Shown here one piece after another: positions 1-62,414 of a stretch of DNA of 64,000 bases. The position numbers were made by a program, and so were the translations under genes. Below the pieces are notes generated by a model that saw only the letters and a program-made list of their open reading frames with translations, was not told where the DNA came from and made no database searches. Every line of letters begins with the position of its first letter. The first letter of the stretch is position 1. The stretch covers positions 7,327,425 to 7,391,424 of the forward strand of contig CP154954.1 in NCBI GenBank assembly GCA_039621445.1, written 5' to 3'. Source of the DNA: Euglena gracilis (taxonomy: Eukaryota).

Positions 1-3000
1 GGAGAAAGCACGGGAAGAAGTGGCGGCGGCAGAGGAGGCGAAGAAGGTGCGGAAGGTGGTGGTGCGGCCGTGGCAGCACCTCCCGAACCGGCCGTTCACG
101 GTCGGCCGGATGGAGCACCGTGGGGGGTGCTACCAGCTGCTGATGGACGTGGAGGTGGAGGCAGGCGGGATGAAGGTCCAGACGAAGGCGTTGATCGATC
201 CGGGGGGGCAGACCTCCCTCGTGAAGAAGGAGCTGTTCCCGGAGTCGGTGTTCCACGCGGCAACAAGACCCTTGGTGCTGCGCACGGTGAGCGTAGAAGC
301 ACTACCCGGAGGACAACGAGAAGCAGAGCTGAAGCTGTCCTTCGCGGCCCAGACTGATGACGAGGAGCGGAGACCGAGGACGTGGACGACGAAGGTGGTG
401 GCGTACGACGGCTGCATCAGCACGGATATGATCCTGGGGTATCCGTGGCTGCGGGAGAACCGGCTGGAGGTCCAGCCATGGCGCGACACCTTGCAGCTCC
501 ACGCGGACCCAAAGTGGATCCTGAGGCGGCGTGGAGACGAAGAGAAGAAGGAGGAAGATGATGATGAAGACGAAGACGAGCTGGACGGCTACCTCTCCAC
601 GGTGAAGAAGATGCGGCAGCTGACCACGGACGAGGGCACAGACCGAGTAGTGGCGATGATGCTGAAGGAGGCCGAAGAAGCGGCGAAGGCGGTGCGAGGG
701 GTGGTGGAGACGGAAGATGATGTCGACCATCCCTTGGCGCGGCAGCTGCGGGACGAGATCATCAACGAGTTCGAAGGCCGGGTGTTCCGTGAGCGGGTCT
801 GGCCGTGTCCCCCGGCGCGGGGCACCCATGGGAAGGCAGTGCTGAGGCTGAAGCCGGGAGCAACCCCGGTGGTGGGCCGGATCATCAACCTCAAGGGCGA
901 GCGGCTGGAGGCCCTGAGGGAGATGGAGCGGGAGTGCCTGGCGGACGGCAAGCTGGAGGCGGGGCGGGGGCCGTGGAGGGCGGCCGCCTTCCCCATCCGC
1001 AAGAAGTCGGGCAAGTGGAGGCTGGTGTGCGACTACAGCTTGACCAACAAGATGCTGCAGATGGACTCCTACCCCCTACCGCTGACGGAGGACATCGTGA
1101 GCGAGCAGGCGAAGTGCGAGATCTTCTCGACGGTGGACCTGCGGGACGCCTTCCACCAGGTGGCCATGGCGGAGGAAAGCCGACCCATCACCAACATCCA
1201 CCTGCCCGGCGGCCTCTGGCAGTGGACCGTGGTGCCCCAGGGCATCAACGTCGGTCCGGCGCTGCTCCAGAGGGACATCGACGCGACCTGCCGCAACGTC
1301 TCCGCCCACACCCCACCCCTACTTTGACGACATCCTGGTGAGCACGAGGCGGCTGCCGGGGTGGAGCGACGAGGAGCTGATCAGGCGGCACGCGGGGGAT
1401 CTGCGCGAGACCCTGCGGGCGCTGGAGGCGGATCGGTGGGTGGCGGATAAGAAGAAGGCGCAGCTGTTCCGCAAGAGGGCGGAGTTCGTGGGGCACGTGC
1501 TGGTGGAGGGCAAGCGCGTGCCCGCGAGCGGCAAGCTGGCGGCGGTGCAGCGGTGGCAACCCCCGGCCAATGTGATGAGTTTGCGCGCTTTTCTCGGCCT
1601 CTGCAATTATTATTCAGGGTATGTACGTATGTACTCGGAGCTGGTCGCCCCCCTGCAGGAGAAACTGAAGCTACCGCGGGATTTGTCCCGGGCAGGCAGC
1701 AAGCACCCCATCGGGTGGTCCGCGGCCGAGCTGGAGGCATTCGAGAAGCTGAAGGCAGCGCTGGTGGCGGACCTGGAGCTGTGGCACGTGGACATGAACA
1801 AACCGTTCGTGTTGCGCACGGACGCCTCTGACTATGCGGTGGGCGCTGTGCTGGAGCAGCTACCGAAGGTGGAGGGCATCCCCTCGGTGGAGGAGCTCCT
1901 GAAGCCCGGGGCGACGGTGGCGCTGCGCTTCATGAGAAGGAAGCTGACGGAGGGGCAGCGGCTGCGGTGGGACACCCGCGAAAAGGAGACGTACGCGGTG
2001 GTGAGCGCGCTGGACAAGTGGGGCGGCTACATCACCGGGCAGAAGGTCCTGGTCCTGACGGACCACCGGTCCCTGGAGAGCTGGTACAAGGAGCACGTCT
2101 CCCGGGGATCGGGACCGCAATGCCGGCGGGCGAGGTGGCACTCCAAGCTGAACGAGCACACGGTGCAGGTGGTGACGCGCTGTCGCGGTGGGCGTACCCG
2201 GCCAGCCAGGAGTACCGAGACTCCTGCTGGCACTGGACGGCAGCGGACGCCGAGGAGATGGAGCAGCATATCCGAAAGAAGAAGGCCGCGGAGCGCAGCT
2301 GCCGGAAGGCAGTACACCCGGTGGATAAGGTGTGCCCCCTCCCAACCGCAAATGCGGCATCCCCATCACCGCCAGCCGGGACACCGGCAGCCACGGCGGC
2401 ATCGGCCGGGACACCGGCATCCGAGTCGCGCCCGCCGGGATTCCGGCAGCCGGAAGTCGGGCAATCCGACCGCCGCCCCCACCGAACCCCACCACGCCGT
2501 CTGCGACTGCAGCACTGACCGTGCGAGCGCCCAGTGCGACAGCGCTGGCATCGCCCGGGCAGCCCGAGCAGGTGCAGCACCCAGCGTTGTCCGCGCAGCC
2601 CAAGCAGCAGCAGCAGCCCGCCACACCACGCACCGTGCAGTTTTCCGTACGGCCAGCCGCGGCACGGGCAGCAGCACCCGCCGTGCGATCCCTGTCCGCC
2701 GAGCAAGCACGGTCCACGCCCGCGGCCAGCGCACGCAGCATCCCACCGTCCGCAGCGATCGCCGTGACAACCCGAAGCCATGCGGCCGTCAAGCCGCCCG
2801 GTGCCGCCGTCCCGAAGAAGCCAGCCGGGAGAGTGGTGCCGTCGGCCGGCCCACGCAAGGTGGGGGGGCACCCCAGCCCTCCCGCCGTGCCGCCTGTGCC
2901 GTGCCGTACCGGTGGCAGCCGCCGTGCCGCCTGTGGCAGCTGCCGTGCCGCCAGCTGCGGCCACCCCGGCCGCAGCCCCACAAGAAGAGGACCAGGACCT

Positions 3001-6000
3001 GATGGCGATGGACTGGAGTGATGCGTATGAGAAGTGCCCAACGTTCAAAGAGCCGTGGCAGGCCATCAAGCGCGGCCGGCCATGGCCCACCGGCTACCGG
3101 AAGGAGGCAGGCAAGCTGGTGAAGGATTCCGCCTGGTGCGTGCCGGATGCCCTGACCGAGCGGGCAATCCGAGAGCAGCACCGGGCGTCGGGGCACGTCC
3201 GTGGTGAGCGCCTCCTCGATGAGGCCAGCCGGAACTTCCAGTTTGCGGTGCCCTCCCGAGCACGCGAGCTGGCGGGCAAGATTCTGGCTGTGTGCGAGCT
3301 CTGCCAGGCGTCGGAGCACCCACACCAACCCCTCCGGCTCGGCATCAGGCCACGCCAGTGCCGCCCCATGTGATGTGTTCGGTGAGCGTGGATCTGTTCC
3401 AGATGCCTGAGGTGGAGGTGGAGGGCGGCAAGCTAATGAACGTGTTCGCAGCATGCATCGATCGGCACTCCGGCTGGGCGATCGCAACCGTGCACCACAC
3501 CCGCGGGCTAACGGCGGAGGCGGTGGCTAAGGCTATGTATGAGCAGTGGGAGCAGTTCGGCGTGCAAAGCGTCATCACGTCGGACAGGGGCCCCCACTTC
3601 GTGGGGGCCTGGTGGAGGGCAATGTGCGCAAGACTGGGCGTGCGCCATGCCTTCTCCCAAGCATACCACCACGAAGGCAACGCCCGTGCGGAGGTCCTCG
3701 GCGCGCAGACCCAGAAGCGGCTGAAGAAGATGAAGGCGGCGGAGGGCGTGGAATTGCCGGAGGCGCTGCCGCGGGCCCTGCGGACCCTGCATGACAGTGC
3801 TGGGCCCAGCGGCATGAGCCCCTTCCAGGTGCTCTTCGGCCGCGATCGGTGGTATGGCGGGGTACCGTATCAGCCGCCCACGCGAGCCGAGGACGCGGTG
3901 GCCTTCTTCGAGCGCATGCAGGACATCGATCATCGTGTTGCGAAGATCCTGAATAAGGAGCACGGCAAGACAGACGAGGCGGTCAACAAGCAGAAGAAGG
4001 AGCTGCCGGAGCTGGAGATCAACGACAAGGTCTGGTATCTCCGCCCGCGCACCCGCACCGGCGAGAAGCTGGAGACGTACTGGATTGGGCCGTGCGTGGT
4101 GGCAGAGCGCACCAGACGTACGTGCTCCAGATGGAGGATGGCCGGAAGCAGGTGGCACACCGATCCCAAATCAAGAGCTACCGCCACGATCCAGCGCTCA
4201 TGGGGCCACCACTCCGTCTCTTCCACTTCCGCCAATCCAGGCCGGAGGAGGGTTCACGGCTGGACGAGTGGGAGGTGGAGGCGGTGGTCACCCACCGGCG
4301 CGATGCCAACAGCGACCTAGAGTTCCTCGTCAAGTGGCTGGGGTACGAGGAGAAGACGTGAGAGCCGCTGCGGCACTTCTTCCACCGGTACGCCTCCCCC
4401 ATCGTGTCGTACTTCGTCGAACACGACATTGAGGAGGACATCATGAAGTACCTTTCGAGGTTCCCGGAGGAAGCCCACATCGCCATCTGCCACGCCGTGG
4501 AGATTGAGAAGGAGAAGGAGAAGGAGTTTGGGCTGTCCTGGGAGGAGCCACCAGAGGAGTGGATGTTGCAGGACCCCGAGGACGGAGATGTATTTAGAGA
4601 AGGTGATGATTCTGGTGGCGACGATGATGCAGGTGATGGAGGAGACGAAGGAGATCGACACCAAGAAGACGGAGGAGATGCTACCACGGCGGGTCCCCAA
4701 CAAGCGGCCCACACCAGATACCCGGTCAGGGTCCACAGGCAGCCCGCGGGCGGCGAGCACCCCGTCTCCGTGCGATCCGCGTCTGCGAGGGATGCGCTCT
4801 CCCGCGCTTCCCTTGCCCCAGCTCCACCGTCCACCACCCCATCACTTCCCATGTCGCACGCGTACCCACCCCGCAGTCCAGGCGTACCTCAGAGACCCGG
4901 TCCCGAGTCTCCCCTGCCCCCACGGGTAGGGGTTCCCGCCCCCGCGTGTCGACCCGCAGGGACGCCCCAGCTCGGGATCCCCCCCCCCACCGGGGGGCCC
5001 CGTTCTCGTGCACCCCCATGACCCGTCCCTGCGGCGAGGGGGCACCACCACCGGAGGCGTGCCCCTGCATGGCCACGGTGCGACCCGGCCCTTCCTTCCC
5101 AACAAGGAGGCCACCCCTGCCCCCTGCCCACACCCCATGGGGAAATGGAAAAAGCCTGGCGTCAACCTGGGATTTTCTCCATGGTGGTCGTGTTCCAGTT
5201 CATCTTTCTGTTCCTTCCCCTCGCCTTCGACGCTCAGGAAAGGCGGCTGGCAGCGCGCGCGCAGGAGCTGAGCTGTCGTCCAGGAGATGCGGTGACGTCG
5301 GCGGCAGCTGGCTCACGCCCTACTGACCTGATGGATACTGTGGAGGCTCTCACCCACCAACCCAACCGCTTACTGGTGTGCCACCCATCCCCTCTCATCC
5401 CCAACCGAAGCTGAGCCACGGTGAGCCCGGACAGAGGCCGAGCCAGGAGAAGGGAGACCGGAGATAGCCCAGAGAAGAGAGAGAGAGGAGAGGAGAGGAG
5501 AGCGACGAAGCACGGGGGCGAAAGCCCCGGGGAGAGGCGAGCAAAGAAGGAGAGGAAAGGAGAAGGAAAGGGGACCCAAGGGGGGAAACCCAACCGACCC
5601 CGGGGGCAAAGGGGGCAAAGGGGGCCCAGAGGGGACCCAGGGAAGACCAAAGGACCCGGACCGGGGGCACCCAAGAGCGGCCCAGGGGGGCCGCCCAGGA
5701 CCACCCGGGGCCGGGGGGGGGGACGCACGGCCCAGGGGGGCCGGCAAAAAGAAAAAAAAAGCGGCCAGGGGGCAGCGCCCACACCCCGGGGGGGGGGGAC
5801 CCAAGAGCCCCCCAGGGGGGCCGCCCACGCCCCCGGGGGGGGGGGTGGGGGGGGCGCCAAAAAGCGGCACATGGGGGCCGCCCAGACCCCATGGGGGGGG
5901 GCGCCGAAAAGCGGCCCAGACCCGGGGGGGGGGGGGGGGGAGGGGGCACGGCCCGGGGGGGCCGGCAAAAAAAAAAGCTGCCAGGGGGACCGCCAGCCCC

Positions 6001-6422: not shown

Positions 6423-6919
6423 GTTCTGTTTTTCACTGCAGGCTCCCTCTCTTTACCTGTGGTTTCAATTCAAGATTGTGCCTGCTGAATCAAGACCAAG
6501 GTCAAATTATATCAATTTTCAAGGCAATTCAAAGAAAGGAACTGGATCCAAGGAAGTACAAAAGTTCAAAAAAATCAAAATCCCAAGGGCGGAGCAAGCA
6601 AGGGATTACAAAAAAGATTGGTTATCTGCTGGCGCAGGAGAGCAGTACAAGCCCAAAAGGTGTTGGTGCTGGGGTATCTGATGCCTAGGGGAGGGCAACC
6701 AGGCCTTTTCCTAAACCCCCCCACTGCCGGAAGGGACGCCAAGCCGGACTCCCCACTCCAACCACTCCCCAAAAAGGAGGGCCTTTGGTCCCCGGGAAAA
6801 AATCCTACGTGGGAAGGGGAGTATCCCGAACCTACCCCTCTCCCCAGAGCCCATCGCGCCTACACCCCACCTCGCCGGTGCCCCCTCACGGACCCCCGGG
6901 AGTGAAGGCTGGGCAAAAA

Positions 6920-9900
6920 CAACATCGTTCGGGAAACTGTCTTTTCTGAAAAATTGAAGGGTTTGGTGAACGATGTTCAGGTTTAGGGTATAATCCCCTG
7001 GGTCCCTTTGCTCCCCGGTCAGGGAGTCTGCCAATTGCTCTCTTGTGGGAACCTAAACCACCTGCAAATTGGTTTGCTTTTTGCTTGCTTTTCCTGACAA
7101 TGATACAGAAGGGTTTTAAGACGGAATTTAGGTATGGCTTTCTGTCTCCCCATTTTGTTAAATAACTTACAGCCACCTTGCTGTCCACATGAAGTGTTAT
7201 TGTTTGTCTTGGTTTGGCCAGACTTTTTACTGCTGACATCAACTCCTTTTGGTTGATGTGAAAGATGTGCAGGTCCCCCCAAAAAACCTGCACTTTTTGG
7301 CCTGAGGTTTTGTCCACCCCCCCCCCCACTGCCAGGTTCTGCTGTCTGAGAACAGTTCCTGAGAGGCCTGGGATTGAAAAGCTCTGCCCACACCTGGCTG
7401 CAAAAACGCTTTTAACTCCATAATTTGATCTTTGACCCCCTGGGGAATGGTTAGGGTGTGCTCCCAACCCCACTTTGTGTGCAAATCCACCATTTTTGCA
7501 AAGTTGATCTGTCAGAATTTTGAGAAATGGCATTGAGACTAAATAGCTTCTGACCTGCCCCACAAGAAAAAGAGTTTTTTGCTCTTTTTGTAGCTGGCCT
7601 TTTGGCTTTTTTTTTTTAGTTTTCCAGCCTTGTGGGTTTTTGCTCCATTTCTTGGCCCCTGGGGCTCCCTGATTTCCAGTCATTCATCTTGTGAGGTTTT
7701 TACTCCCTGCTGTCCCTTTTTTTTCTGGGGGTTTCTCTCGCCATGAACCTTTGCCTTTCTTCTTTCTCCCCCTCTGCTTTTCATTGTCTTGCAAACATGC
7801 TTTTTTCCTTTCATCTCTTTTCAATTTCCCACACTTTCTTCTCTTTCTTCCCATCCTTCTTGTTTTCTTTAAGTATGAGAGTCTTTTCCTTCCAGTCTTC
7901 CTTTGTTTTTTGCTTCTTTTTGACTCCCTTTTTCTGGAAGAAATTTTTCCCTGCTCGTCTCTCTCAGATTTGTGCTGTGAGCACTTTGCCTGGCTCCTTT
8001 CTTAAGGATTTTAGTCTTTCCTGTGGAATTTCCAGCTGGCCTTTTTTAAAATTGACCCACTGGCCCAAATGCCTTCTCTCCTGTGTGGATTCCCGACAGG
8101 ATTTGTGGAGGTTTAATCTGAAACCTGCCAGGTCCTGTTTTTTTTCTGCCAAATGCTGGGCTGCTGTCTTTTTGCTGGGGGGTAACTGCAAAATGTCGTC
8201 CAGGTAGATGAAAACTACCTTTCCCTCCTTTCTCCGTTTTCTTTCCCAGACTCTCATGAGTTAAAGCTGATGCCGATGCAAGCAGCTTGAAATTGCCAGG
8301 TTTCTCCCCCCACCTGCATGCAAACATGCTTATTCAAGCTGCTGCGCAGCTTCAGATGAAAATAAGCATCTTTCAGATCAATTTTTCCACAAAACCAACC
8401 TTTTCTTAAACATGGGAAGATATTTCCCACGTGCTCCAGGCTGAACTTCTGGGGGGTGAAGTGGAGATTTAACTGTCGACAGTCTGAAATCGGTCTCTCC
8501 TTTGTCTTTTCCCCTTCTTTTTTTGGAAATGATGAAGTAAGGGTGCAAAACGATTTGCATCCTCTGGGGGGATTTGCTTGGGATTTGTTGCCCCTGCACA
8601 TTCGTATTCTCTCAGAATTTTCTGGGCAGTCATTGTTTCTTGGTTGGTTTTGAAGGGAACTTTTAAGGACATTTGAGGGGGGAGGGGAAGATCTGCCATA
8701 AACCCTCCCCTTACCAGGTTTAATACCTCTCTGCTGGCTCCTGCCTTAACCCAATGGGGAATGCTGGCCTGCAGGGCTTTGTAAGGGGGTACCCCTGGGT
8801 GTAATGTGTCTGGGGATTCCACAGGCCCCATCGCTGAGTCCTTCTCCCTGCCTGCCCCATCACTAGGGTCACCCATGGCAGCACCATCACTGGGGCTGCA
8901 GCTGGCCCTGCCATATGGCTTTCCAAAGGCAGGCTTTCTCCCTGTTTTTTTGAATGATGGGGGAAGGTCTGTGTCTGCACTGGGGAGGTACATATAAGGC
9001 TGGGATGATTATCTTCTGGGGGGGCCTGTCTGAGCCAATCTTGGCCCCCCCCCCCAAGGGCTGATGCGGTGTGGATGGACTTGATTGTATTGGCCACCAT
9101 TTGCCTTCAGGGCCATTTGGCCTCCATTGGCACTCAGGCCTGCTTGGCCTCCATTGGCCTTCTCTCCAGAACTTCTTGTCTCTTGTCTGTCCCTCTTGAT
9201 TCCCCATATAGGCCACCTTGGCCTGTTTTTGGCATTAGCTTGCTGCTCCTGGGGGGTTTGTGTCTGAAATTGCTGGGGGGAAAGTTCGACATACCTTTCC
9301 CCAATGGGATCTTTCCAGCATGGGGTACTGGCTGCCATATCCTTGCCCCTGGACCCACTGCCCTCTTGAATGATGGCTGCCATAACATTGATGCTGGACC
9401 CCAGGTCCTTTTGGATGATGGCTGTCACAGCCTTGATGTTGAATTGAATCCCTTGGGTTTCTGATATTTGTTGAAAGGCTGCCATAGCCCTTGCCTTGTC
9501 CCCTGGAAGGGGAGGACATGGAAAAAGGGGGGAGTTTGTTGGACCTGTGATGGTATTTCCCTTCGGTCTTCTTGTCTTCCTCACCACAGTTGTCCATGGT
9601 CCATGGCAATTCTCATGTTGGGTGGGGGATTTTGAAATCTCTGATGTGGTGGGCGGTGGGGGGGGTTGCGATGGCAACGGACTGCCGTGTTGCTGCCGCC
9701 CCTCCAGCTTCTGCAGCTGCTGCTGTGTCTCCACCTTCCCCAGCTTCAGCTGCCTTCTTGGAATATCTTTGAAGTCCTTCTTGGCAGTTTGGCTTTATTT
9801 GAGATTCATTATTCATGAAAGTCCAGTTGTTGACCTAGTTTTAGTAAGTGCAAGGCTTCTGGTATTAATTCCAGTTGAACTCGAAGAGTTGAATTCGTCC

Positions 9901-10900: not shown

Positions 10901-10934
10901 GAAACTGGCAAAAAGATGGGAAGATGTAATCACT

Positions 10935-11320
10935 TTGGGGTTTAGTGTCTGGGAGGAGGAAAGAAAGTCATGCGAGTTCGTACACAGCACAGTGGTTGAA
11001 AAGTGAGGGAAGGAGGGCAGTGTGGTCTGTCGCCCAAGCTGCCGCAGCGTTCGGCCTCGTCTGGGTGCTATCTTGCTTTCTCTATGGCTTTGGCTACTCC
11101 CGCAACGGGAGTAGCCAAAGGGCCGCATGGTAGGGGTGCTCCTCTCGCACTCATGCTGTATACCCGCAATGCCCTCTTTTCAGTGTGACGGTTCTCTGTT
11201 TGTTTAAGGGTTCGGATTATTTCTCCCCCCAGGTCGACTCGACTGCACAGTGTCTAATTGTTGCAAGTGAAAATCCCAGTGGACCTCAGATGGGGGTCTA
11301 GGGGAAGGTTAACCCACCAC
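10935..11320 (+). pseudogene. Inverted duplicate of the last intron end, last exon and 3' flank of MAPEG paralog B
   Basis: Clearly alignable to the reverse complement of ~16885-17295. Encodes [24 protein letters not shown], then loses the frame. Confidence 0.85.
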
Positions 11321-11776
11321 CAAGGACAGCCCACATGGTTGGGCACAAAATTAATTTGTTGTGGTCTTTGGATGGTAAAAGTCCTTTAACTTCAGAAAGA
11401 GTGAACTCCCTTACCAAATAAATTTTGCAAGAGGTGGGGGGTGGACACCACCCACTGGAAACCTCACAGCACCAGAGCGTCTGGGGTTTTATGGTGGAAA
11501 AATGCTGGTTTGCAAGTGGAAGAAGTCCAGCAGTCCAGCAGCTGGGTCAGTGGAAAAATTTGGGGCCTTCCAAGCTCATTTTTTGCGACACGGTGTCGTT
11601 TCAAAAATTCAAAACAAATGGCCCAAAGGGGGTGCACAGTACCTCACCATCTCGCAGTGCGGAGCGCGAATCATACATCTCTCTAAGGCTTTGCGAACCC
11701 TCCGCAGGTGGGGCAGCTGCAGCCAGCGTCGATTTGGGCCCAGCACAGCCGCAGCAGCCCCTCCCCCCGGGGGGGG

Positions 11777-12059
11777 TGGTGCGATTCCGGGGTCCAACCC
11801 CTTTCTGAGGTCCTTTGGAATCTTTTATCACTGCAGTGCAACTTTCTTCTGTAACCTTGCAAACGCCCTCAGAGCTGGGCCTGGTCCCTTAAAAGGACCT
11901 CTCGCAGGCCAAAATTGATCGTTTCAGTAAAATCCTTCGCCAGTTCCAGATATAATATCTCAATGTGTTGCAGGCATTTTACACAGTGAATTAGGATTGG
12001 CCAGTTCTACCCAGAGCGCTAACATACAGAAACAAGCTGGCCGCCATCTACAGCTTATA
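11777..12059 (-). repeat. 3' LTR (283 bp, TATAAG...CACCA)
   Basis: Direct repeat of 13391-13673; terminal bases slightly mutated. Confidence 0.92.
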
Positions 12060-12070
12060 CTCCCCCTCCC
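12060..12070 (-). promoter_or_regulatory. Polypurine tract
   Basis: GGGAGGGGGAG abuts the 3' LTR and is preceded by a GACAGCC/GGCTGTC hairpin (12073-12094). Confidence 0.85.
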
Positions 12071-12364
12071 ACGACAGCCACCAGGGGGGCTGTCAGAGAA
12101 ACTTCAGGGCTTCAATGTTGAAAAATCAAAAAAATCGTTGTAAGCATTTTGGGCAAAGAAAGCCACATCCGTAAACATGGGGGGGGCATCCTTTGCGAGC
12201 CACCTGTGAGCATCAACCTTAGAGCCCAACAGTAGCATCGAAAAGGAGTCCCCAACAGGTTGGAAAGTGTCTTCGGGGGGCCAAGGAGCATCCTTACTGG
12301 GCCACCTGAGAGCATCCCAATGAGCCCTTACAGGAGCACCAACAAAGAGCCCACAAGGCACCAC

Positions 12365-13391
12365 TCACTCTTTCTTTGCCTTCTTTCTTCTGCTCCTCCT
12401 TTTCGATGAAACGGTTCTTGCCCAGGTGCCATCAAGTTCTTCAGGAGTGTAGGTTTTTCCCTCCTCGATCATCTCCTCCTCATCTTTTTCTCCGTCGAGA
12501 AGGTAGGCCCACAGGCCCCATCTTGTACCTGGAACTGCACCTTGGGGAAGTTCAAAAATTGGAGCCACAGCTGTATAGTAGTACTTCTTCACAATGTGGG
12601 GCTGGAGATCCTGCCAAAATTCCTGATTCCTCCAATCTGGACAAACGAGCACCACCCTGGGTTTGTCTTGCTTCAGCTTTTTAATCACCTCTGGGAGCCT
12701 TGAAAAAGGGGGATTCATCCAAAGAATCTTTCCCTTTGGCCACTTCACAGCAAATGCATACAAATGCTTTCCCCCTGGAACCAAACCATTCCTCAAACTG
12801 GTGGTTAAACTCATCAGCAAAACAGTCCACTTGGGGGGTTACCTGCAACCTTAGCATGATGTCGTTAAGGAAGCTTTTCTTCACACTGTACTTCTCAGAG
12901 GTCCACTTCTCAGATCCTTGAGTTTGAGTTGCGACCACTGAAATTCCCCACCTCAGGAGCCACTCCTGATCCACACAGGGGGCATCAACAGAGGAGGTAC
13001 TTCTGTTGAGTGGCTTCAGCAATTCTCCTTCCTCGGCATTCTTTCTGACCTTTTGCCAATTCTTCTTCTCATGATCTTTGCACAAATCACATTCACAACC
13101 AGCTTGAAACATACCATACATCTCCAGTGAAATGGGCTTGGATCTTCTCAATCTTCTGGCCATAAAAACTGTCAAACATTCTCCCATGAACAATTCCCCA
13201 AAGTGACCAGGATAATCATCTGGACGTTGATCATCTGGGTTCTGGGCCAAAACTTGCACATGTCTGATCCAGTCCCCTTTGCCATTTCCATTGACATTTC
13301 GAATGTCAGCTGGAGTGTCACGCCAGATCTGAATCCGACTGTGCTCTCTGGTCACAGAAGCCTGGGTGCTATGCACACCCTCGTCCACCAT
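12365..13391 (-). CDS. Dam-like (phage/DIRS-type) DNA N6-adenine methyltransferase, one +1 frameshift near 12780
   Basis: Reads YSVKKSFLNDIMLRLQVTPQVDCFA (SAM-binding motif region), WFG/PGG..AFAVKW, ILWMNPPFSRL (catalytic NPPF) and VVLVCPDWRNQEFW. N-terminal CECDLC; C-terminal KRRSRRKKAKK. Removing one base in GGTTCCA joins ORFs 12681..13445 and 12365..12820. Confidence 0.85.
13378..13390 (-). promoter_or_regulatory. Primer-binding site, probably tRNA-Ala
   Basis: TGGTGGACGAGGG abuts the 5' LTR. It is complementary to a tRNA 3' end ...CUCGUCCACCA, as in yeast-type tRNA-Ala (recalled, not searched). Confidence 0.75.
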
Positions 13392-13673
13392 GTTGCGATT
13401 CCGGGGGCCAACCCCTTTCTGAGGTCCTTTGGAATCTTTTATCACTGCAGTGCAACTTTCTTCTGTAACCTTGCAAACGCCCTCAGAGCTGGGCCCGGTC
13501 CCTTAAAAGGACCTCTCGCAGGCCAAAATCGATCTTTTCAGTAAAATCCTTCGCCAGTTCCAGATATAATATCTCAATGTGTTGCAGGCATTTTGCACAG
13601 TGAATTAGGATTGGCCAGTCCTACCCAGAGCGCTAACATACAGAAACAAGCTGGCCGCCAGGTACAGCTTACA
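13391..13673 (-). repeat. 5' LTR (283 bp, TGTAAG...CAACA)
   Basis: Direct repeat of 11777-12059 with about 10 substitutions counted by eye; canonical TG/CA ends. Confidence 0.92.
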
Positions 13674-16477
13674 GGGGGTGCTGCTAGCCCTAGCGGCAAG
13701 CCCCTTATTGGGGGTCCAGCCCAAAATGTTTCGGCGCAAAGCGCCGAAATTTTTTGAAAAGCTGCGTTCAATAGTGGCCAAAAATGGGCTTTGCGGGGCA
13801 TTTGGGGCATTTTGGGGGGTTTAAGACGCACGGTTTTTCAAAACTGTGTTTTGCAGGCCATTTTTGGGCATTTTCCGATTTCAGTCCAGCCCTCCCCGGT
13901 TCGCCCTCTTTGTCCATTCCTCCCCCATCCGCTTTTTTGGGAGTCCGAGGCACGGACCTCTGGGCTGATGAACAGTGCAAGTAGAACTTGATCAACCTTT
14001 CTTACCCTACCCAACTGCATTTTTGGTCGGCAGCGGAAAATTTTCGGGTCCCCAAACCCCCACTCCAGATTTCCGCCCGGAATGTTGAGCAAGGAACGGG
14101 ATCCTGAAATACGGGCGAACCTACCTCCGGAGACAAAACAAACGCGCTGTGAGATGTACCCCAGCAAAAAACACACCATGAACTAACCGCCGGCACAAAA
14201 AAGCAGTACTTCACCGCGCCCTTGTGCCTCGCCCTCCTGGTCATTTCCCTTTCCCCGGAGTGCCTTACCCCCACCCCAGCGCGCCAAAGCAATTCGTACT
14301 TCCTCGAGGCAAGCCGACAAGGAAAAACAGGACACCGAAGGCGAAGCACAAAGACATTAAGAGGCCATGCCTTGCTCGCCTTTTGCCGGCAAGCAAGGCA
14401 TGGCCTCACAATCAGGCTCCCCCGGGGGGGGTCCTTAAGCAATCGGCTAGACACTGGAAAAAGGGGACTAGCTAGACCCCCTCCCCCCCGGGGGGGGGGG
14501 GTCCGGGGGTCCCCCGGACTGGAAAAAAAATTTTCCTCCGGCGCTGCGGGTGAGGATGAGGTTTTTAATAGGTTTTTGGCTGAATTTGTTCCAAAAATTT
14601 CCAAAAATGGCCAAAAACGGGCATTTTTGGCCATTTTTGGGGGTGCCAAAAAAAATTTCGGCGCTTCGCGCCGGTCACTGTTAAAAAATTTTCCACTAGC
14701 TAGCCCTGCTAGCAGACCCCCCCCCGGGGGGGGGGCTGCTAGAAAACCCACTAGCCAAATTTGGACTAGCTGCAGTCCAGCCCCCCCCCCGGGGGGTACT
14801 GCAATCCCTTAAGCAAATGCCTGCTCACAATGGCGGAGCCCGTGGTGTCCACAACACACCGCAGGCGAGCACGGCGTTGAAAAGGTCAAAGGCGTTGAAA
14901 AAAATGAAAACAAATTGTGTGCGAAACGATGTTTTTTGGCCTCCCGGATCCGGAAAAAGCTGTTTTTGAGCCGAACTTTGCACCAAAAACATCCACCCCA
15001 AACGTCCCCCACATCCACCCACACATACCCGCAGACGCCCCACTTTATGCCATTTGTGAAAAAAAAAACCAAAAGACGGAAGTGCGGAAATTTTGCCCAA
15101 ATCAAAAACGTAAAAAACCCACAAAAAACGCTTTTGGCCTCTCTCTGCCCTGGGTCGGCAGGAAATGATGGTTTCAGCACCGAAGCATGCACTGATGGGG
15201 ATGTCTTGCCTTGGGGATGTCACGTTGAAAAAAGTATGTAATGCCAAAAGCATAATAAAAAAAAAACAACGAAGGACAGTCTGCAAGCTGCAGCAAACGT
15301 TCAACGCGGGGAACAAAAATAGGGAGAGAAAATGCTGCCACTTTCATACAAGGTGAAAGACATGCACCAGGAAAAAATCATTCTGGTATATGGCATGGGC
15401 AAAAACATCTTTCGGTGAATCATCAGAACTTCATTTTCAGAACAATTTTGACAGCATTGTATTTTTTCTGAAATAGGGTAAGTGGTTGTTGGTCAGGATA
15501 TAGGGTTTGGTTAGTCAATGGTCTGTTAGGGTTCATTAGTGTAATGGTTAATGATGCAATGGGGTTGGGTTGGTTTTCTTCAGGCCGAAATTAGGCCATT
15601 TTTAACCCGAAACGCGATTTGAAATGTGGCAAATATTTTAGTCCAACATTAGTTTCGGGGCCAATGAACCAAAGCTGGAAGAATTGAAACAGTTACCGAA
15701 CTAATTAACCCCACATGAGTGGACAATCTCTGGGAGTCCGTTTATCGGGTAGCTGTAAATTCTTTTTCATGGCTCACTAACCCTAAGAATTTTCCACAGA
15801 AACGTTTTTGGAGATTATGAATTTTGGGATGAATTGAATCATGAGTTACTCTTTTCCGAAATCATGTACTCCTGTGTTAAAAGCAGTTTATAAATGCCGA
15901 ATATTGCAGTTTTTCAGGATACTAACCCATATCACGAAACAAGCTTCGGCACATAACCAACATCTAGTATGCCGTTGCCAACTTTCTCTTGATCAATCAA
16001 AATGGGGACATACCTTTGGCTGCGAATTTTCAAACGATACAAATTGAGATTCCAAATCACATTTGTAGTTGCAATAATATAACATTCAATACTCGATGAT
16101 GTGCAAAACTGTGGACAATTTCTGTGATGCATTTGCTCAAAAGACAAACAGCAAAACTCCATCGAAAAAGATGTGGGAATTGTGATCACAGAAGGAATGG
16201 AGTAAGCATCTGGTCAAATTTGGGAGTTGGCATCTCTGTTCAAATCCTGGCCACCTGGTCACCACTTTAAGCAACGCATTGGGGGCTGGGAGAATCGCCG
16301 AACCGGCGTCTACACTAGTTCTGCCATAACAGCCCCCGCATACAGGGAAAGGAACATCAGGGGCAGAGTGCCCAGATGCGGGCAGGCAGTGAGTTTGAGT
16401 TTGAAAAAGCTTGAGGTGTTAAAAAGAATGGTTGAGAATTATGCAAAAGAAAACTGTTCTACAAAGTTGCAAAGAAA

Positions 16478-17029: not shown

Positions 17030-20000
17030 TTAAACAAAAAGAGAACCGTCACAGCGAAAAGAGGGGAGTGCGGGTACACAGCCTGAGTGCGAGAGGAGCA
17101 CCCCTACCATGCGGCCCTTTGGCCCGCTGCGGGAGTAGCCAAAGCCATAGAGAAAGCGCGACAGCACCCAGACGAGGCCGAACGCTGCGGCAGCTTTGGC
17201 CGGAGACCACACTGCCCTCCTTTCCTCCCTTTTCAACCACTGTGCTATGTATGAACTCACATGGCTTTCTTTGTCCTCCCAGACACTGAACCCCGAAATG
17301 AAGAAACACATTGCACATTGTTTCCAGTCGAATGATGTGCAACCATCTGAAGCGCACCAAAATAACTGGTCATAGGCATGGAGGGGGTTCAGACTCCAAA
17401 ATCCTTCGTCAGGCCGGCAGTCAGCTCCTGGACCCCAGCTCCTGGACCCCCCCTCAAGAGAAAATATTGGTGTGAGGGTTTGGGCAAAAAACCCTAACCT
17501 CTTGGCAGTGGAGGGAAATATAAAAACACATCTGGGGGTACACTTGTGAATTTCCTCACAAATTGCACCGCCATCAAACATCAGCGGGCAGACACATCTG
17601 GGTTGTATCATGTTACTGCAGCCTCGCTGGGGAACAGCAAGCCGTCCACCACCATGAGAATTTGAATGGGCGCCCAAGACTCCAGGGTGTTGCTCCCAAG
17701 GCAGCCTGGGGCTTGGGGGGGGGTGAGCATGCCAGCACATACACCCAGGACGTTTCAACATGTGATGCTGCGGGAACAATTGGGGCAGATGAGACCGAGC
17801 ACTGAACGATACTCCAAACCTTGACATTTCAAAAATTGTTCGTCCGTGTGATCAATAGATTAGCATATTGCCAAAATTAAACCACTGGTGAGGATTAAAA
17901 TTAGAGTCAGGGTAAAGAAAAGGGTTAGGGTTAGGGAACAGCATTCACAGGGGCAAACACCGCCATACACTTTTTCAGACAATGGGGGGTGCAGGTTTGC
18001 AGAACACCTCGTTTTTGTGGACGCTGGTCTTGCCTTAGAAGCCACCAGGATTAATAAATTTTTGTGCCATTACGCAACATGCCAACTCAAAACATCTGGG
18101 GTTTATAAATCAACAATTCAATGATGGCCCAAAATAACCACAAAACGCCTCAAATTGGCAATTTTTTTTGGCAAATTTGGTCAAAAAATGACTTTTTTTT
18201 TGATGATGGTCGGTCTCAAAAAGTTGCCAAAAAGCCAGTTTTTGGGTGGTTGTGGCTGAAAACAAATTCCCGGTGGTTTTCCTTTTTCTTCCCCAGCATT
18301 CCCCAGAAGCGCAAAATCGGGGTTTCGATTGGTTGAAAACTCTGCAAAAGTAACGAGACATCCAACACACACAAAAACATCAACAATCAAAGGGGATTAT
18401 CTGCGCACGAGATGCAAAAAATCTGAATGGTGAAAAACTTCTCCCATGAAACCACGCAATATCCCAATAGCGTGCTGAAAAACAACGCAAATTCTTGAAT
18501 TCGCGAATTTTCGCAACCGAGATGACCGAGATGGCTTCCCAAAAGAAATCAAATCTTCATCTTAACATGACACGAAGCATGAAAAAAAAAAACGGTTAAC
18601 CCAAAAAATGATGGAATTTCAGGCTTAGAGACACAAAAAAACAAAAAAAAAAACAAAACAAATAAAAAAAAAACAAAAAAAAAAAAACAAAAAAAAAAAA
18701 AAAAGAAACAAGAAAGTTTCACGCAACGGACCCAAAACAAACCCCCAAAAATATTTGGGTTCGGCTTCATCTTTATCAAATTTGATTAAAATCAGCATTT
18801 TTCAATGGATAAGAAAATCTTCAACAGGAAAATAAACAGCTGTATGTAAGTTTTCATTTCCTTGAATTGTGTTTCAGGTGAGTTCCCCAACAAAATGACA
18901 AAAACATGTCCAGGACCAATTCAGGGGAGGAGTTTCCAGAATCAAGACTTTCCCCACACCATTGCTTACCGACCGGGGTCACTTTCCAATTTCAAAAAAA
19001 CCAGTCATTCACTATTCAAAAAAAAACCCCGGGAGGTCGGTCACTTTGGCCACTCGGGCCAAATGGCCTAAACTCAATGGATTTTGGCCAAAAATACAAA
19101 ACAAAGTGGCCTTCGGTGCCGGGTTGCCTGCGCTGAAGGCCAAGCCACCTTTGCCTTTCCTGCCCTTCCTGCCATTCCTGGCCGACCCTAATCCTGGGGA
19201 GGTCTGGAGCCAAAAACCAGTCAGTCACTCCAGTCACCCCCAGGGGGGGGGGGTCGGACACACCTTAAGCAATGGTATGCCCCAGATCCCACTCGTCAGG
19301 CAAGGAGCGTGTGCTACGGACTCTGTCCCGTCCAGGGGGGGGGGTCGGACCCCCCTTTCCCTCCTTGGGGAGTGAGGCCACAAACAGCCGACCTGTCTCC
19401 GTCCCTCCTGTAGAACAAAACCCACCAAAAAAAAATGCCAAAAAAAAGAACTAAATGGAACCTGTCCCAACTGATTGGTTCAGTAACAAGAATTGCCTTC
19501 AATGTCTCAACACATTTAATTATTATTTTCTTTGTGGGCATGTTTTCTTCTTCAGACACTTTCACCTGGCGTTATCACGTGACTTTAATATGGCTCTTTA
19601 AAATATGAGCAGGAATAAACCCTCTCCCTAACCATCAAACTGACTCAATTTCAACTCAATTTCAATTCTTGACACTCAACCTCTCATGCTGTGCTGATCA
19701 CTGAACGAGAAATCAAAAGGCGAGCTGATGACCAACACACAAGAAAAAAATCGAACTGGAACTTCGAGTTTGCCCTGATTTTGATGTGCCCGCTGCACGG
19801 AATTGAACTTGTCATGGTCCTTGTGGTCCTTGTCACCGGCACGAGTTCGCACAACCCATCAAATCACCTTCAGAGACGCTTTATTGGGAGAAATTTCTGT
19901 TCTTTGACCTTTGATGACTGCTCAAACGTTCCACTAGCATCTGTGTTTCACCCCTCTTTCCTAACTAAAAACAGAAACCTCAATAATAATGCAGTTTCAG

Positions 20001-20647
20001 GCCTGTCCCATGCTTGCATTTTGGTTTGCAGACTATGGTAGCTGCTGGGTGAAATTTCTCCGCCACTTGGACAGATTTATCAATTTATTTTTCTCCTTCT
20101 TTTTACAAAACCTTTTGAGGAATCTCCAAAACTTATGTATGTATATGTATATATACACGTATACATATATATGTATATATGTATATATATGTACATATAC
20201 ATACATATACGTATATATGTAAACCCCCCCACTTACTAACCCCCCCCCCCACTTACTAACCCCCCCCACTTACTAACCCCCCCCTCGGGCCGACCAACCA
20301 AACCGGGACATATAAACCCCCCCCCTTCGGGGAAAGAAAATGAAAGCCGCCGGGGCCGATTTTTTTGGCCTCAAACCACCCAAAAACTGATTTTTGGCCC
20401 TTTTTTTGAGATCGACAATCATCAAAAATGCTATTTTTGACCAAATTTACCAAAAATTGCCATTTTGAGGGGGTTTTGGGGTCATTTTTGGGGTTCGGAT
20501 TTTCACCAACAATTCCGGGACTTATAAACCCCCCCCCCACTTACTAACCCCCCCCCTTCGGCCGACCAACCAAACCGGATCCTACTAACCCCGGGGGGTT
20601 TATAAGTGGGGGGGTTTACATATACACACACATGTGTGTATGTACAT

Positions 20648-20698
<51 letters not shown>

Positions 20699-20705
20699 CA
20701 CATAC

Positions 20706-20789
<84 letters not shown>

Positions 20790-20791
20790 GC

Positions 20792-20851
<60 letters not shown>

Positions 20852-21877
20852 GTATACGTATACATATACATATCCATACACACATATACATATACATACA
20901 CACATACGTATACATGACATATACACAAATACATATACATATACCTATACATATACACACACATATATAAGAGCGTTGATGCGCTGCCATGATAACATGT
21001 GGGTGGGGAGTGGCAGAACATGAAATGTTTTCCAACATCGCTGATGCTCGTTCGTGGGCAGCGTAAAGCGTTGGGTACGGTACCTTGTACTGCTTGCGTG
21101 CTCTGACCACAAGGGCCATAAGGTAGATATTCAGGATATGATGCAACTTCTTCCCACACGAGGGAGGGGGGCTCAAACTTCAGTGCATATTTAATTTAGA
21201 CCCAAATGTTTAGACCCAAATCTTCATCCATGCTGGCACTTTTGAAACAAAATGCCCCAAATTCGTTCAGTATCAAAATAAAAAGCAGGGGCAAAAAGGC
21301 TTCAATGTTTTTTGCAGACTCCTAAAAATGAACAAACTTGTTACAAATGAGCCGTCGACACAGGATGCACGCATGTGTGTGTTTATGTGCGTGCATGCAT
21401 GAACATTTGTTAGTCCAGGAGACATCTGTTTCTTAGACGATCAAAATGTTTTCGATACAAAGCCAGCAGCGCAGAACATGGCAGGTAGGGAAATCTCCGG
21501 ACCCTTTGGGATCAAGGAATAGGGGGATATGGAGACGCCCCCCACCTAAATAGTCGCATGACCCATCTTTGGACAGTTGCAAATGCGAGCACCCCCCTCT
21601 ATGGGGTCCGGTTCTGGACCCAACTACCCCCGCTGGGTGGGGGGGTCTTCTGAGTTAAAAAAAAAAACCCTGACAAGACAGTGACAGGCGAGTGGGGGTG
21701 GTCTGGACACCTTGGTCAAGGATGGACATCTTTATATCGAACCTTTTCTTGTTTGCACAAAAAGAAGGGCTAGGAGGGTTTTTTCAAAACAAACTCAAGC
21801 AGTGGCATCCCCAGGAACCATGACAATCCAATCACCAGCAACACATAGCCGAAATCTTTTGGGATGGGGACGGACAT
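17030..21877 (-). CDS. MAPEG family / microsomal glutathione S-transferase 3-like, paralog B (5 exons)
   Basis: Exons ~21877-21812 ([22 protein letters not shown]), ~21131-21060 ([24 protein letters not shown]), 19834-19781 ([18 protein letters not shown]), 17691-17629 ([21 protein letters not shown]) and 17197-17030 ([22 protein letters not shown]..). The MAPEG motif FNxxQRAHQNTLE is restored by splicing. The extreme C-terminus may be frameshifted. Confidence 0.88.
20219..20619. mobile_element. MITE-like element inserted in a TA-rich microsatellite
   Basis: TIR GTAAACCCCCCC(C)ACTTA / TAAGTGGGGGGGGTTTAC, internal ACTTACTAACCCC repeats, TA/TACA repeats on both sides. Confidence 0.7.
20620..20968. 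repeat. (CATATA)n microsatellite
   Basis: Directly visible. Confidence 0.95.

Positions 21878-52838: not shown

Positions 52839-62414
<9,576 letters not shown>

Follow-up and report, generated by a model that had tools for sequence, protein, structure and literature searches.

Within a 64,000-nucleotide stretch of the Euglena gracilis genome (GenBank assembly GCA_039621445.1, contig CP154954.1, forward-strand positions 7,327,425 to 7,391,424), hereafter called the window and numbered from its first letter, lies a compact element of 1.9 kb that occupies positions 11777–13673 and is read on the minus strand, that is, from 13673 to 11777. Two long terminal repeats (LTRs) of 283 bp enclose a 1331-bp interior (12060–13390, minus), which carries one sense-strand open reading frame (ORF), divided between two frames, for a predicted Dam-like methyltransferase. 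An earlier reading of the same letters—the original prediction—had proposed an LTR element of the integrase class that lacks gag and pol genes and has a Dam-type methyltransferase as its sole cargo, and both the anatomy of the element and the Pfam searches reported below agree with that proposal.

Anatomy and insertion site

The 5′ LTR (13391..13673, minus) has the termini TG...CA; in the 3′ LTR (11777..12059, minus) the second base is changed, giving TA...CA, so that both repeats end in CA. Alignment of the two with 10-nt flanks gave 283 nt with 10 differences, a repeat search gave 281 nt at 97% identity, and a 31-nt word from the LTR has exactly two occurrences in the window, against 0 in 100 shuffles. 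A primer-binding-site-like sequence, TGGTGGACGAG (13380..13390, read 13390→13380, minus), abuts the 5′ LTR and a polypurine tract (PPT), GGGAGGGGGAG (12060..12070, read 12070→12060, minus), abuts the 3′ LTR; a tRNA scan of the window found 0 genes and Rfam 0 matches, and TGGTGGACGAG is called a primer-binding site (PBS) by its position and its TGG start. On the outer sides, GGGGG (plus strand) stands at 13674..13678 and at 11772..11776, the upstream and downstream copies, in the element's minus-strand orientation, of a putative 5-bp target-site duplication. The original prediction had pointed out all of these: the two 283-bp repeats with about 10 differences, the PBS and PPT flush with them and GGGGG on both flanks. 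Direct repeats, TG...CA termini, a PPT and a target duplication of 4–6 bp are the structural characters of an integrase-class LTR retrotransposon, and the element has them.

Three motifs in the 5′ LTR, namely CCAAT (LTR position 60), a TATA-like TATTATAT (position 103) and GATAAA (position 231), have inferred promoter and poly(A) roles. Between the stop codon and the PPT lies a non-coding 3′ region (12071..12364, minus) with no family match, judged by Pfam on one 86-residue frame (12104–12364). By eye, this 12104–12364 segment (minus) holds two similar units of ~100 nt with GATGC-type words and in-frame D-A-P/D-A-L peptides, and the linker regions of related proteins hold repeated R-L-x-x-D-A motifs. 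As a separate observation, the element is depleted in CpG: the observed/expected ratio is 0.34 (0.26 in the interior), compared with 0.60 and 0.71 in the adjoining 2 kb on each side and 0.91 in a Gypsy element at 1–4400.

Other copies of the element and of its surroundings were assessed from Logan contigs of two DNA sequencing runs, X1 and X6. In run X1, contigs of the uninterrupted host repeat connect 11776 with 13674 or 13677 across 3–5 intervening letters, and a paralogue within the window, at 14650–14740, aligns across the joined flanks; these empty sites establish the LTR ends as real insertion boundaries. GGGGG sits in a C/G run of the host repeat, and the exact length of the target duplication can therefore not be fixed. 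The flanks belong to a hyper-abundant repeat, with summed contig word depths of 10^4–10^6 across the two DNA runs, compared with tens to ~2,000 over most of the element. Around the insertion (11300–11776 and 13674–14100) this repeat shows C-run/G-run palindromes, GCTAGC and a CGGCGC..GCGCCG hairpin motif, and related pieces recur at 14460–14800.

The single gene and its product

The ORF, of about 365 codons, opens in frame A (12681..13391, minus), which supplies the Met start, a disordered N-terminus, a cysteine (Cys) module, a linker and the first half of the DAM domain, and closes in frame B (12365..12838, minus), which supplies the second half of the domain, an acidic stretch, a basic tail (SSKRRSRRKKAKKE, 12368–12409, minus) and the stop codon (12365–12367). 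The last ~30 codons of frame A are an out-of-frame read-through. The ATG (13391–13389) begins on the final LTR base and extends into the PBS-like site; no other ATG follows the TATA-like box, which lies upstream together with CCAAT. A four-Cys module of the form G-x-C ... C-x-C-x2-C (13017..13202, minus; residues about 64–125, with Cys at 71, 98, 100 and 103) precedes the predicted Dam-like N6-adenine methyltransferase domain, which lies at 12491..12905 (minus), split over the two frames; the motifs VDCFA (12816–12830) and NPPF (12704–12715) are present on the minus strand, as is VLVCPDW. The basic tail looks like a nuclear-localisation or nucleic-acid-binding signal.

A family profile built from 45 relatives, with the window's own row left out, matches frame A over profile positions 36–138 (E 1.2e-20) and frame B over positions 137–267 (E 5.6e-54), and as these matches are contiguous, the gene is whole except for a single frame change. 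That change falls within 12740..12800 (minus), where profile positions 137 and 138 meet, and means that the window copy cannot make the full protein. In this interval, the sole covering contig from each of the runs X1 and X6 differs from the window by one base in length, at 12780. A programmed frameshift was considered and rejected: the contigs of other copies are one base different in length at this point and all relatives are single-frame.

The original prediction of a ~1.3-kb interior with a sense methyltransferase ORF bearing VDCFA, NPPF and VLVCPDW, and with no gag, reverse transcriptase (RT) or integrase, was borne out: Pfam searches of the interior frames tested, sense and antisense, found Dam alone and no gag, RT or integrase. 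When 150 relatives, including forms with protease (PR) and RT, were used as tblastn queries, PR and RT were found in the window solely at the separate Gypsy at 1–4400. The Cys module can be aligned in relatives and an AlphaFold model gives it block confidence (pLDDT, predicted local distance difference test) values of 84–94 over residues 71–120; fold searches with the N-terminal model returned no match (best Foldseek E 0.2; best VIA Z 3.2) and no gag-like fold. A bias in the second residue of relatives, considered as a sign of overlap between PBS and start codon, was discarded, since 11 of 29 such codons start with G when counted by eye, which is no enrichment.

The frame-B piece alone matches Pfam Dam (PF05869) with E 0.0026 and 17.9 bits against a cut-off of 28.1, and frame A gives no match; the low score is due to the splitting of the domain by the frame change. 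Four relatives score above the cut-off: P0151 (36.1 bits), P0090 (32.5), P0068 (31.7) and P0025 (28.8). The only other functionally named families matched are two phage N6-adenine methyltransferase models, TIGR01712 and phrog_111, both below their own cut-offs. The catalytic (D/N)PP(Y/F) motif is present as NPPF, its N, P and P being invariant or nearly so in the alignments.

Fold was tested on an AlphaFold model of P0003, the closest intact relative used, in place of the window's broken ORF, and matches within one Z unit were counted as tied. The model has block pLDDT values of 92–98 over residues 71–210. Its best match is the vertebrate cap adenosine methyltransferase 6irx_A (Z 11.2, root-mean-square deviation (rmsd) 3.0, 135 residues aligned), with Erm/KsgA rRNA enzymes next (Z 8.4–8.8); T4 Dam 1q0s_A reaches Z 8.6 (rmsd 3.0, 109 aligned), E. 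coli Dam Z 8.2 and M.TaqI Z 8.0. The modelled fold says class I S-adenosylmethionine-dependent adenine-N6 methyltransferase and would be compatible with a DNA or an RNA substrate. A sequence search of the Protein Data Bank with the family profile gave 0 matches at E ≤ 1. Kinship with DIRS and phage Dam enzymes, as originally proposed, is upheld by the Dam profile matches of the family and by the N6-adenine methyltransferase fold of P0003; the expected match of the ORF to amino-methyltransferase profiles holds in part, for the family reaches the Dam profiles and has an N6-adenine fold and the window's own frame B stops at 17.9 bits, short of the 28.1-bit cut-off.

The likeness to the methyltransferase domain of DIRS1-like elements lies in PF05869 and in a D-x-F-A-type motif followed by NPPF or NPPY. 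According to Goodwin and Poulter, DIRS elements reportedly carry RT/RNase H-methyltransferase (RT/RH-MT) proteins and a tyrosine recombinase, have inverted or split repeats and make no target duplication; none of these features is found in the window element. Its methyltransferase type is nevertheless the DIRS one, and a weak RNase H-like ORF lies nearby (6886–7683, minus, 265 residues, Pfam E 0.044), both of which would be expected if the locus were a fragment of a tyrosine-recombinase retrotransposon (DIRS, PAT-like or Ngaro) whose split direct repeats mimic LTRs. Such an origin is very improbable in view of the TG...CA termini, the TGG-starting PBS and the PPT flush with the repeats, and the flanking duplication with its exact empty sites; furthermore, what follows the 3′ repeat is no repetition of what precedes it, and Pfam finds neither RT nor RNase H nor a tyrosine recombinase in the interior. 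Membership of the DIRS order was likewise rejected, the repeats being direct and accompanied by PBS, PPT and flanking duplication, with DIRS domains not found between them. The motif pattern of the 6886–7683 (minus) frame itself recalls, by eye, a DIRS-type RNase H and may be a remnant of a tyrosine-recombinase retroelement.

Relatives, other copies and the origin of the layout

A protein-library search with frame B gave 559 matches at E ≤ 0.001 and 111 at E ≤ 1e-10; the following layout counts come from the best 150 of the 559. The domain core is covered in 109 of the 150. In 46 of these 109 the alignment runs through the basic tail and the protein ends within 60 residues after it; a further 43 end soon after the domain, and 20 go on for more than 60 residues. 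The upstream C-x-C-x2-C motif is also present in 12 of the 109. On a tree of the relatives the tail-ending forms cluster: their label needs 21 changes, the mean over shuffles is 35.4, and 0 of 500 shuffles came down to 21. Whole clades, of 17 and of 32 rows, are free of extended forms, and the window row groups loosely with P0001–P0004.

The extended relatives that were checked are polyproteins, either PR-DAM-RT (P0025, P0040) or Dam joined to a C5 cytosine DNA methyltransferase (DNMT; P0068), and P0143 is a polyprotein as well. Polyprotein forms fall in clades apart from the tail-ending forms and their Dams have no basic tail. The contigs of stand-alone relatives measure 1.07–2.36 kb, those of polyprotein relatives 2.6–6.6 kb; the short contigs fit short elements or transcripts, and are no proof of either. 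Two of the polyproteins deserve a separate word: in P0068 the Dam domain is accompanied by a match to C5 cytosine methylase and by a protease of retroviral type, and P0143 combines a Dam profile match with C5-methylase-like and protease-like motifs seen by eye. Both resemble the dual-methylation 'EpiLTR' architecture of the preprint by Fernandez-Moreno et al. (bioRxiv 10.64898/2026.05.21.726589, May 2026; hereafter the preprint).

Further searches added little to this set. A near-length word search with frame A passed 0 of 82 candidates, and a search for longer relatives with frame B returned P0002 alone. A first metagenome scan gave 58 pattern matches, 0 of them confirmed, and viral contigs gave 56 pattern matches, again 0 confirmed; a second metagenome scan gave 132 matches and one locus, L001, which encodes a polyprotein-type DAM-RT-RNase H (DAM-RT-RH) and has no terminal repeats on its 2.8-kb contig.

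Within the two DNA runs the interior is covered by contigs 3–10% diverged from the window, with at least two variants overlapping at the same place. One contig crosses the junction of 3′ LTR and interior (11990–12100), one crosses the junction of 5′ LTR and PBS (13346–13505), and one passes at 13674 from the outer edge of the LTR into sequence of a different kind. In the X1 and X6 contigs the LTRs have about the same depth as the interior, and thus show no hint of a great surplus of solo LTRs or of further elements sharing the LTR at ≥90% identity. The 18 listed ORF differences between copies fall in 16 codons, 10 changed synonymously and 6 non-synonymously, a small, selected sample that leans towards purifying selection. 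From two RNA runs, of each of which ~5–6% was sampled, 43 and 36 reads could be placed, nearly all on the flanking repeat; one run gave a depth of about 1.4 over 12334–12521, with no placed read ≥99% like the window, and the result is uninformative on expression either way.

We read the element as a structurally complete copy from a non-autonomous, single-gene 'DAM-only' LTR retrotransposon lineage that is mobilised in trans, and put the probability of this at roughly 0.6. The methyltransferase is, by sequence comparison, DIRS-derived, and the gene layout is that of a large, old lineage. Besides a failure of the ORF to match amino-methyltransferase profiles, the original prediction had named two outcomes that would count against it: a single-copy element without purifying selection, and a one-off deletion of an already described methyltransferase-bearing autonomous family. 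Neither has appeared so far, for diverged copies occur in both DNA runs with listed differences that are mostly synonymous, and the stand-alone ORF layout is common to many distant relatives.

A deletion is nonetheless the first alternative to be weighed: a DAM-bearing autonomous parent of LTR type, namely a Gypsy in which Dam was either separate or fused, could recently have undergone an internal deletion that spared the LTRs and the Dam part, and been slightly amplified, with no lasting DAM-only lineage. DAM-bearing Gypsy-like polyproteins exist among the relatives (P0025, P0040, L001) and in the preprint, the contigs of the relatives are short enough for downstream pol ORFs to have been cut off, and copies were surveyed in contigs of two DNA runs rather than genome-wide. 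The ORF, on the other hand, starts at an ATG of its own where LTR and PBS meet and ends at a stop codon of its own behind the basic tail, and 46 of the 109 relatives, at 30–50% identity, end at the same tail, which polyprotein Dams, in other clades, do not have. Moreover, ~300 nt separate stop and PPT, and the one frame tested there (12104–12364) has no Pfam match. We regard this scenario as unlikely, and a one-off deletion origin of the DAM-only layout appears unlikely on the same sequence comparisons.

Many relatives are complete single ORFs without a transposable-element (TE) domain, 46.1% of eukaryotic Dam proteins in the preprint are without TE features, and the relatives found here are known without their genomic contexts. 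Proteins with Cys module, Dam domain and basic tail could therefore form a cellular, domesticated family, and the window locus be a host gene or mRNA captured between unrelated LTRs. We hold this to be distinctly unlikely: the start codon coincides with the last LTR base and overlaps the PBS, diverged copies retain both LTR/interior junctions, and ancestral-state reconstruction in the preprint puts orphan Dams inside TE branches.

Several observations weigh against the reading of a DAM-only lineage mobilised in trans. The window copy is frameshifted, the pieces of its ORF alone fall short of the Pfam Dam cut-off, and it is the sole copy seen with both LTRs in the window and the contigs of the two DNA runs; its putative target duplication lies within a homopolymer run. 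The synonymous and non-synonymous counts use 18 ORF positions among 40 of 150 difference rows, with several contigs mixed, and the tree, built on 100 columns, is poorly resolved and places the window row in no starred clade. Stand-alone relatives, known here from their proteins and contig sizes, may or may not be bounded by LTRs, and the one kindred locus that came to light, L001, encodes a polyprotein of DAM-RT-RH type. Finally, TE Dams did not raise N6-methyladenine (6mA) in Dam-deficient E. coli according to the preprint, and the enzymatic activity of the DAM-only family is accordingly putative.

Mode of life, known systems and significance

With no gag, protease, RT, RNase H or integrase inside, a DAM-only element must be copied and inserted by the proteins of an autonomous element. 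The helper would be an autonomous LTR element of the same genome, most plausibly of Gypsy type. Transcription would start in the 5′ LTR, the first AUG beyond the TATA-like box would serve as the translation start, and the helper would package the transcript and mobilise it in trans. The encoded enzyme would carry out methylation, possibly of the freshly inserted copy or of intermediates in the element's replication (RNA, cDNA or RNA:DNA hybrid), and this would favour expression or persistence of the element, as the preprint proposes for Dam-bearing LTR elements (DAM-LTRs). The original prediction had suggested that adenine methylation could mark or protect the cDNA or alter host chromatin, effects that are likewise hypothetical.

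A Gypsy/chromovirus, which illustrates a possible type of helper, lies in the window itself, at 1–4400 (plus): degenerate, of ~67% GC and cut by the window start, it shows PR, RT, RNase H, integrase, a chromodomain-like end and in-frame stops. Its PR and RT (within 1–~4400) are 32–37% identical to those of the DAM-bearing P0025, and there is no Dam between them. No link between this Gypsy and the LTR of the mini-element was found, the Gypsy's own LTRs not being definable in the window. Elsewhere in the window, a similar pair of MAPEG-like, exon-sized stretches (10930–11133, plus, and 17030–17851, minus, the latter with Pfam MAPEG E 1.4e-05) suggests a duplicated gene fragment or a repeat-borne exon, and long microsatellite arrays of the TATACA/TATATG type extend over 20060–21000 and 54300–55800.

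Among known non-autonomous elements, terminal-repeat retrotransposons in miniature (TRIMs) and large retrotransposon derivatives (LARDs) have no conserved ORF, and the interior of TRIMs is very short and non-coding. TR-GAG elements, described by Chaparro et al. in 2015, reportedly have a single ORF that is gag, a replication protein. The window element resembles all three in its LTRs, putative PBS and PPT without pol and in needing a helper, and resembles TR-GAG also in having exactly one ORF. It differs from TR-GAG in that this ORF encodes a predicted accessory DNA- or RNA-modifying enzyme, with no gag profile or gag-like fold found. A 1331-bp interior with an ORF of ~365 codons is, in addition, incompatible with a TRIM in the strict sense, the type to which the original prediction had likened the element.

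The closest described elements are those of the preprint, according to which autonomous Ty3/Gypsy-like elements acquired the DIRS-derived Dam on several occasions (Fernandez-Moreno et al., 2026). They share with the window element the same eukaryotic TE Dam family in an integrase-class LTR element, and relatives of the window ORF include PR-DAM-RT and DAM+DNMT polyproteins like those described. In the DAM-LTRs, Dam lies within or beside a pol with RT and integrase, whereas the window element has no RT, integrase, protease or gag between its LTRs and its Dam forms a gene by itself, which has a start, a Cys module and a basic tail of its own. Dam in autonomous Gypsy-like elements is thus already known, and the pol-less DAM-only form differs from the described DAM-LTRs. 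Retrotransposons that carry C5-DNMTs in coding-competent elements (de Mendoza et al., 2018; PMC5890265) are alike in having a nucleic-acid methyltransferase as accessory cargo of a retroelement, but the enzyme of the window element is of N6-adenine type and the element is pol-less.

The preprint further reports that 46.1% of eukaryotic Dam proteins are 'orphans' without TE domains, which its authors view as remnants or annotation gaps. Elements are sorted there by their protein domains, and the main text nowhere uses the term 'non-autonomous'; under such a scheme, an LTR element without pol would count as an orphan Dam. We found no description of a pol-less DAM-only LTR element in the literature, with the proviso that the preprint's supplements, outside this scope, may list cases. 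The novelty claimed in the original prediction is weakened in that Dam in LTR elements of Gypsy-like, autonomous kind was already on record in the preprint's main text; what stands is the DAM-only form, for which no precedent was found.

A stronger version of the proposal, possible but doubtful at present, is that DAM-only elements are satellites: an old, self-sustaining lineage without replication genes, whose methyltransferase is under purifying selection. The enzyme would then need to bring a benefit, and could do so by marking RNA, cDNA or RNA:DNA hybrid of the element itself. Among solved structures, the nearest fold is that of an RNA cap N6-adenosine methyltransferase, which fits the reported absence of double-stranded DNA activity of TE Dams in E. 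coli. Alternatively, the enzyme could serve Dam-less Gypsy helpers in trans, helper and satellite together forming a two-part system.

Non-autonomous retrotransposons normally keep only their cis-acting signals and at most gag. If DAM-only elements are indeed a lineage that has kept a modifying enzyme alone, with signs of selection on it, the enzyme itself would aid the spread or persistence of a retroelement independently of the replication machinery. With one gene in 1.9 kb, they would also provide a compact natural test case for the role of TE-encoded Dam enzymes, which the preprint's main text leaves open after negative assays in E. coli. The 'orphan' half of eukaryotic Dam genes would then have to be read differently, a good share of them being DAM-only elements rather than decayed remnants.

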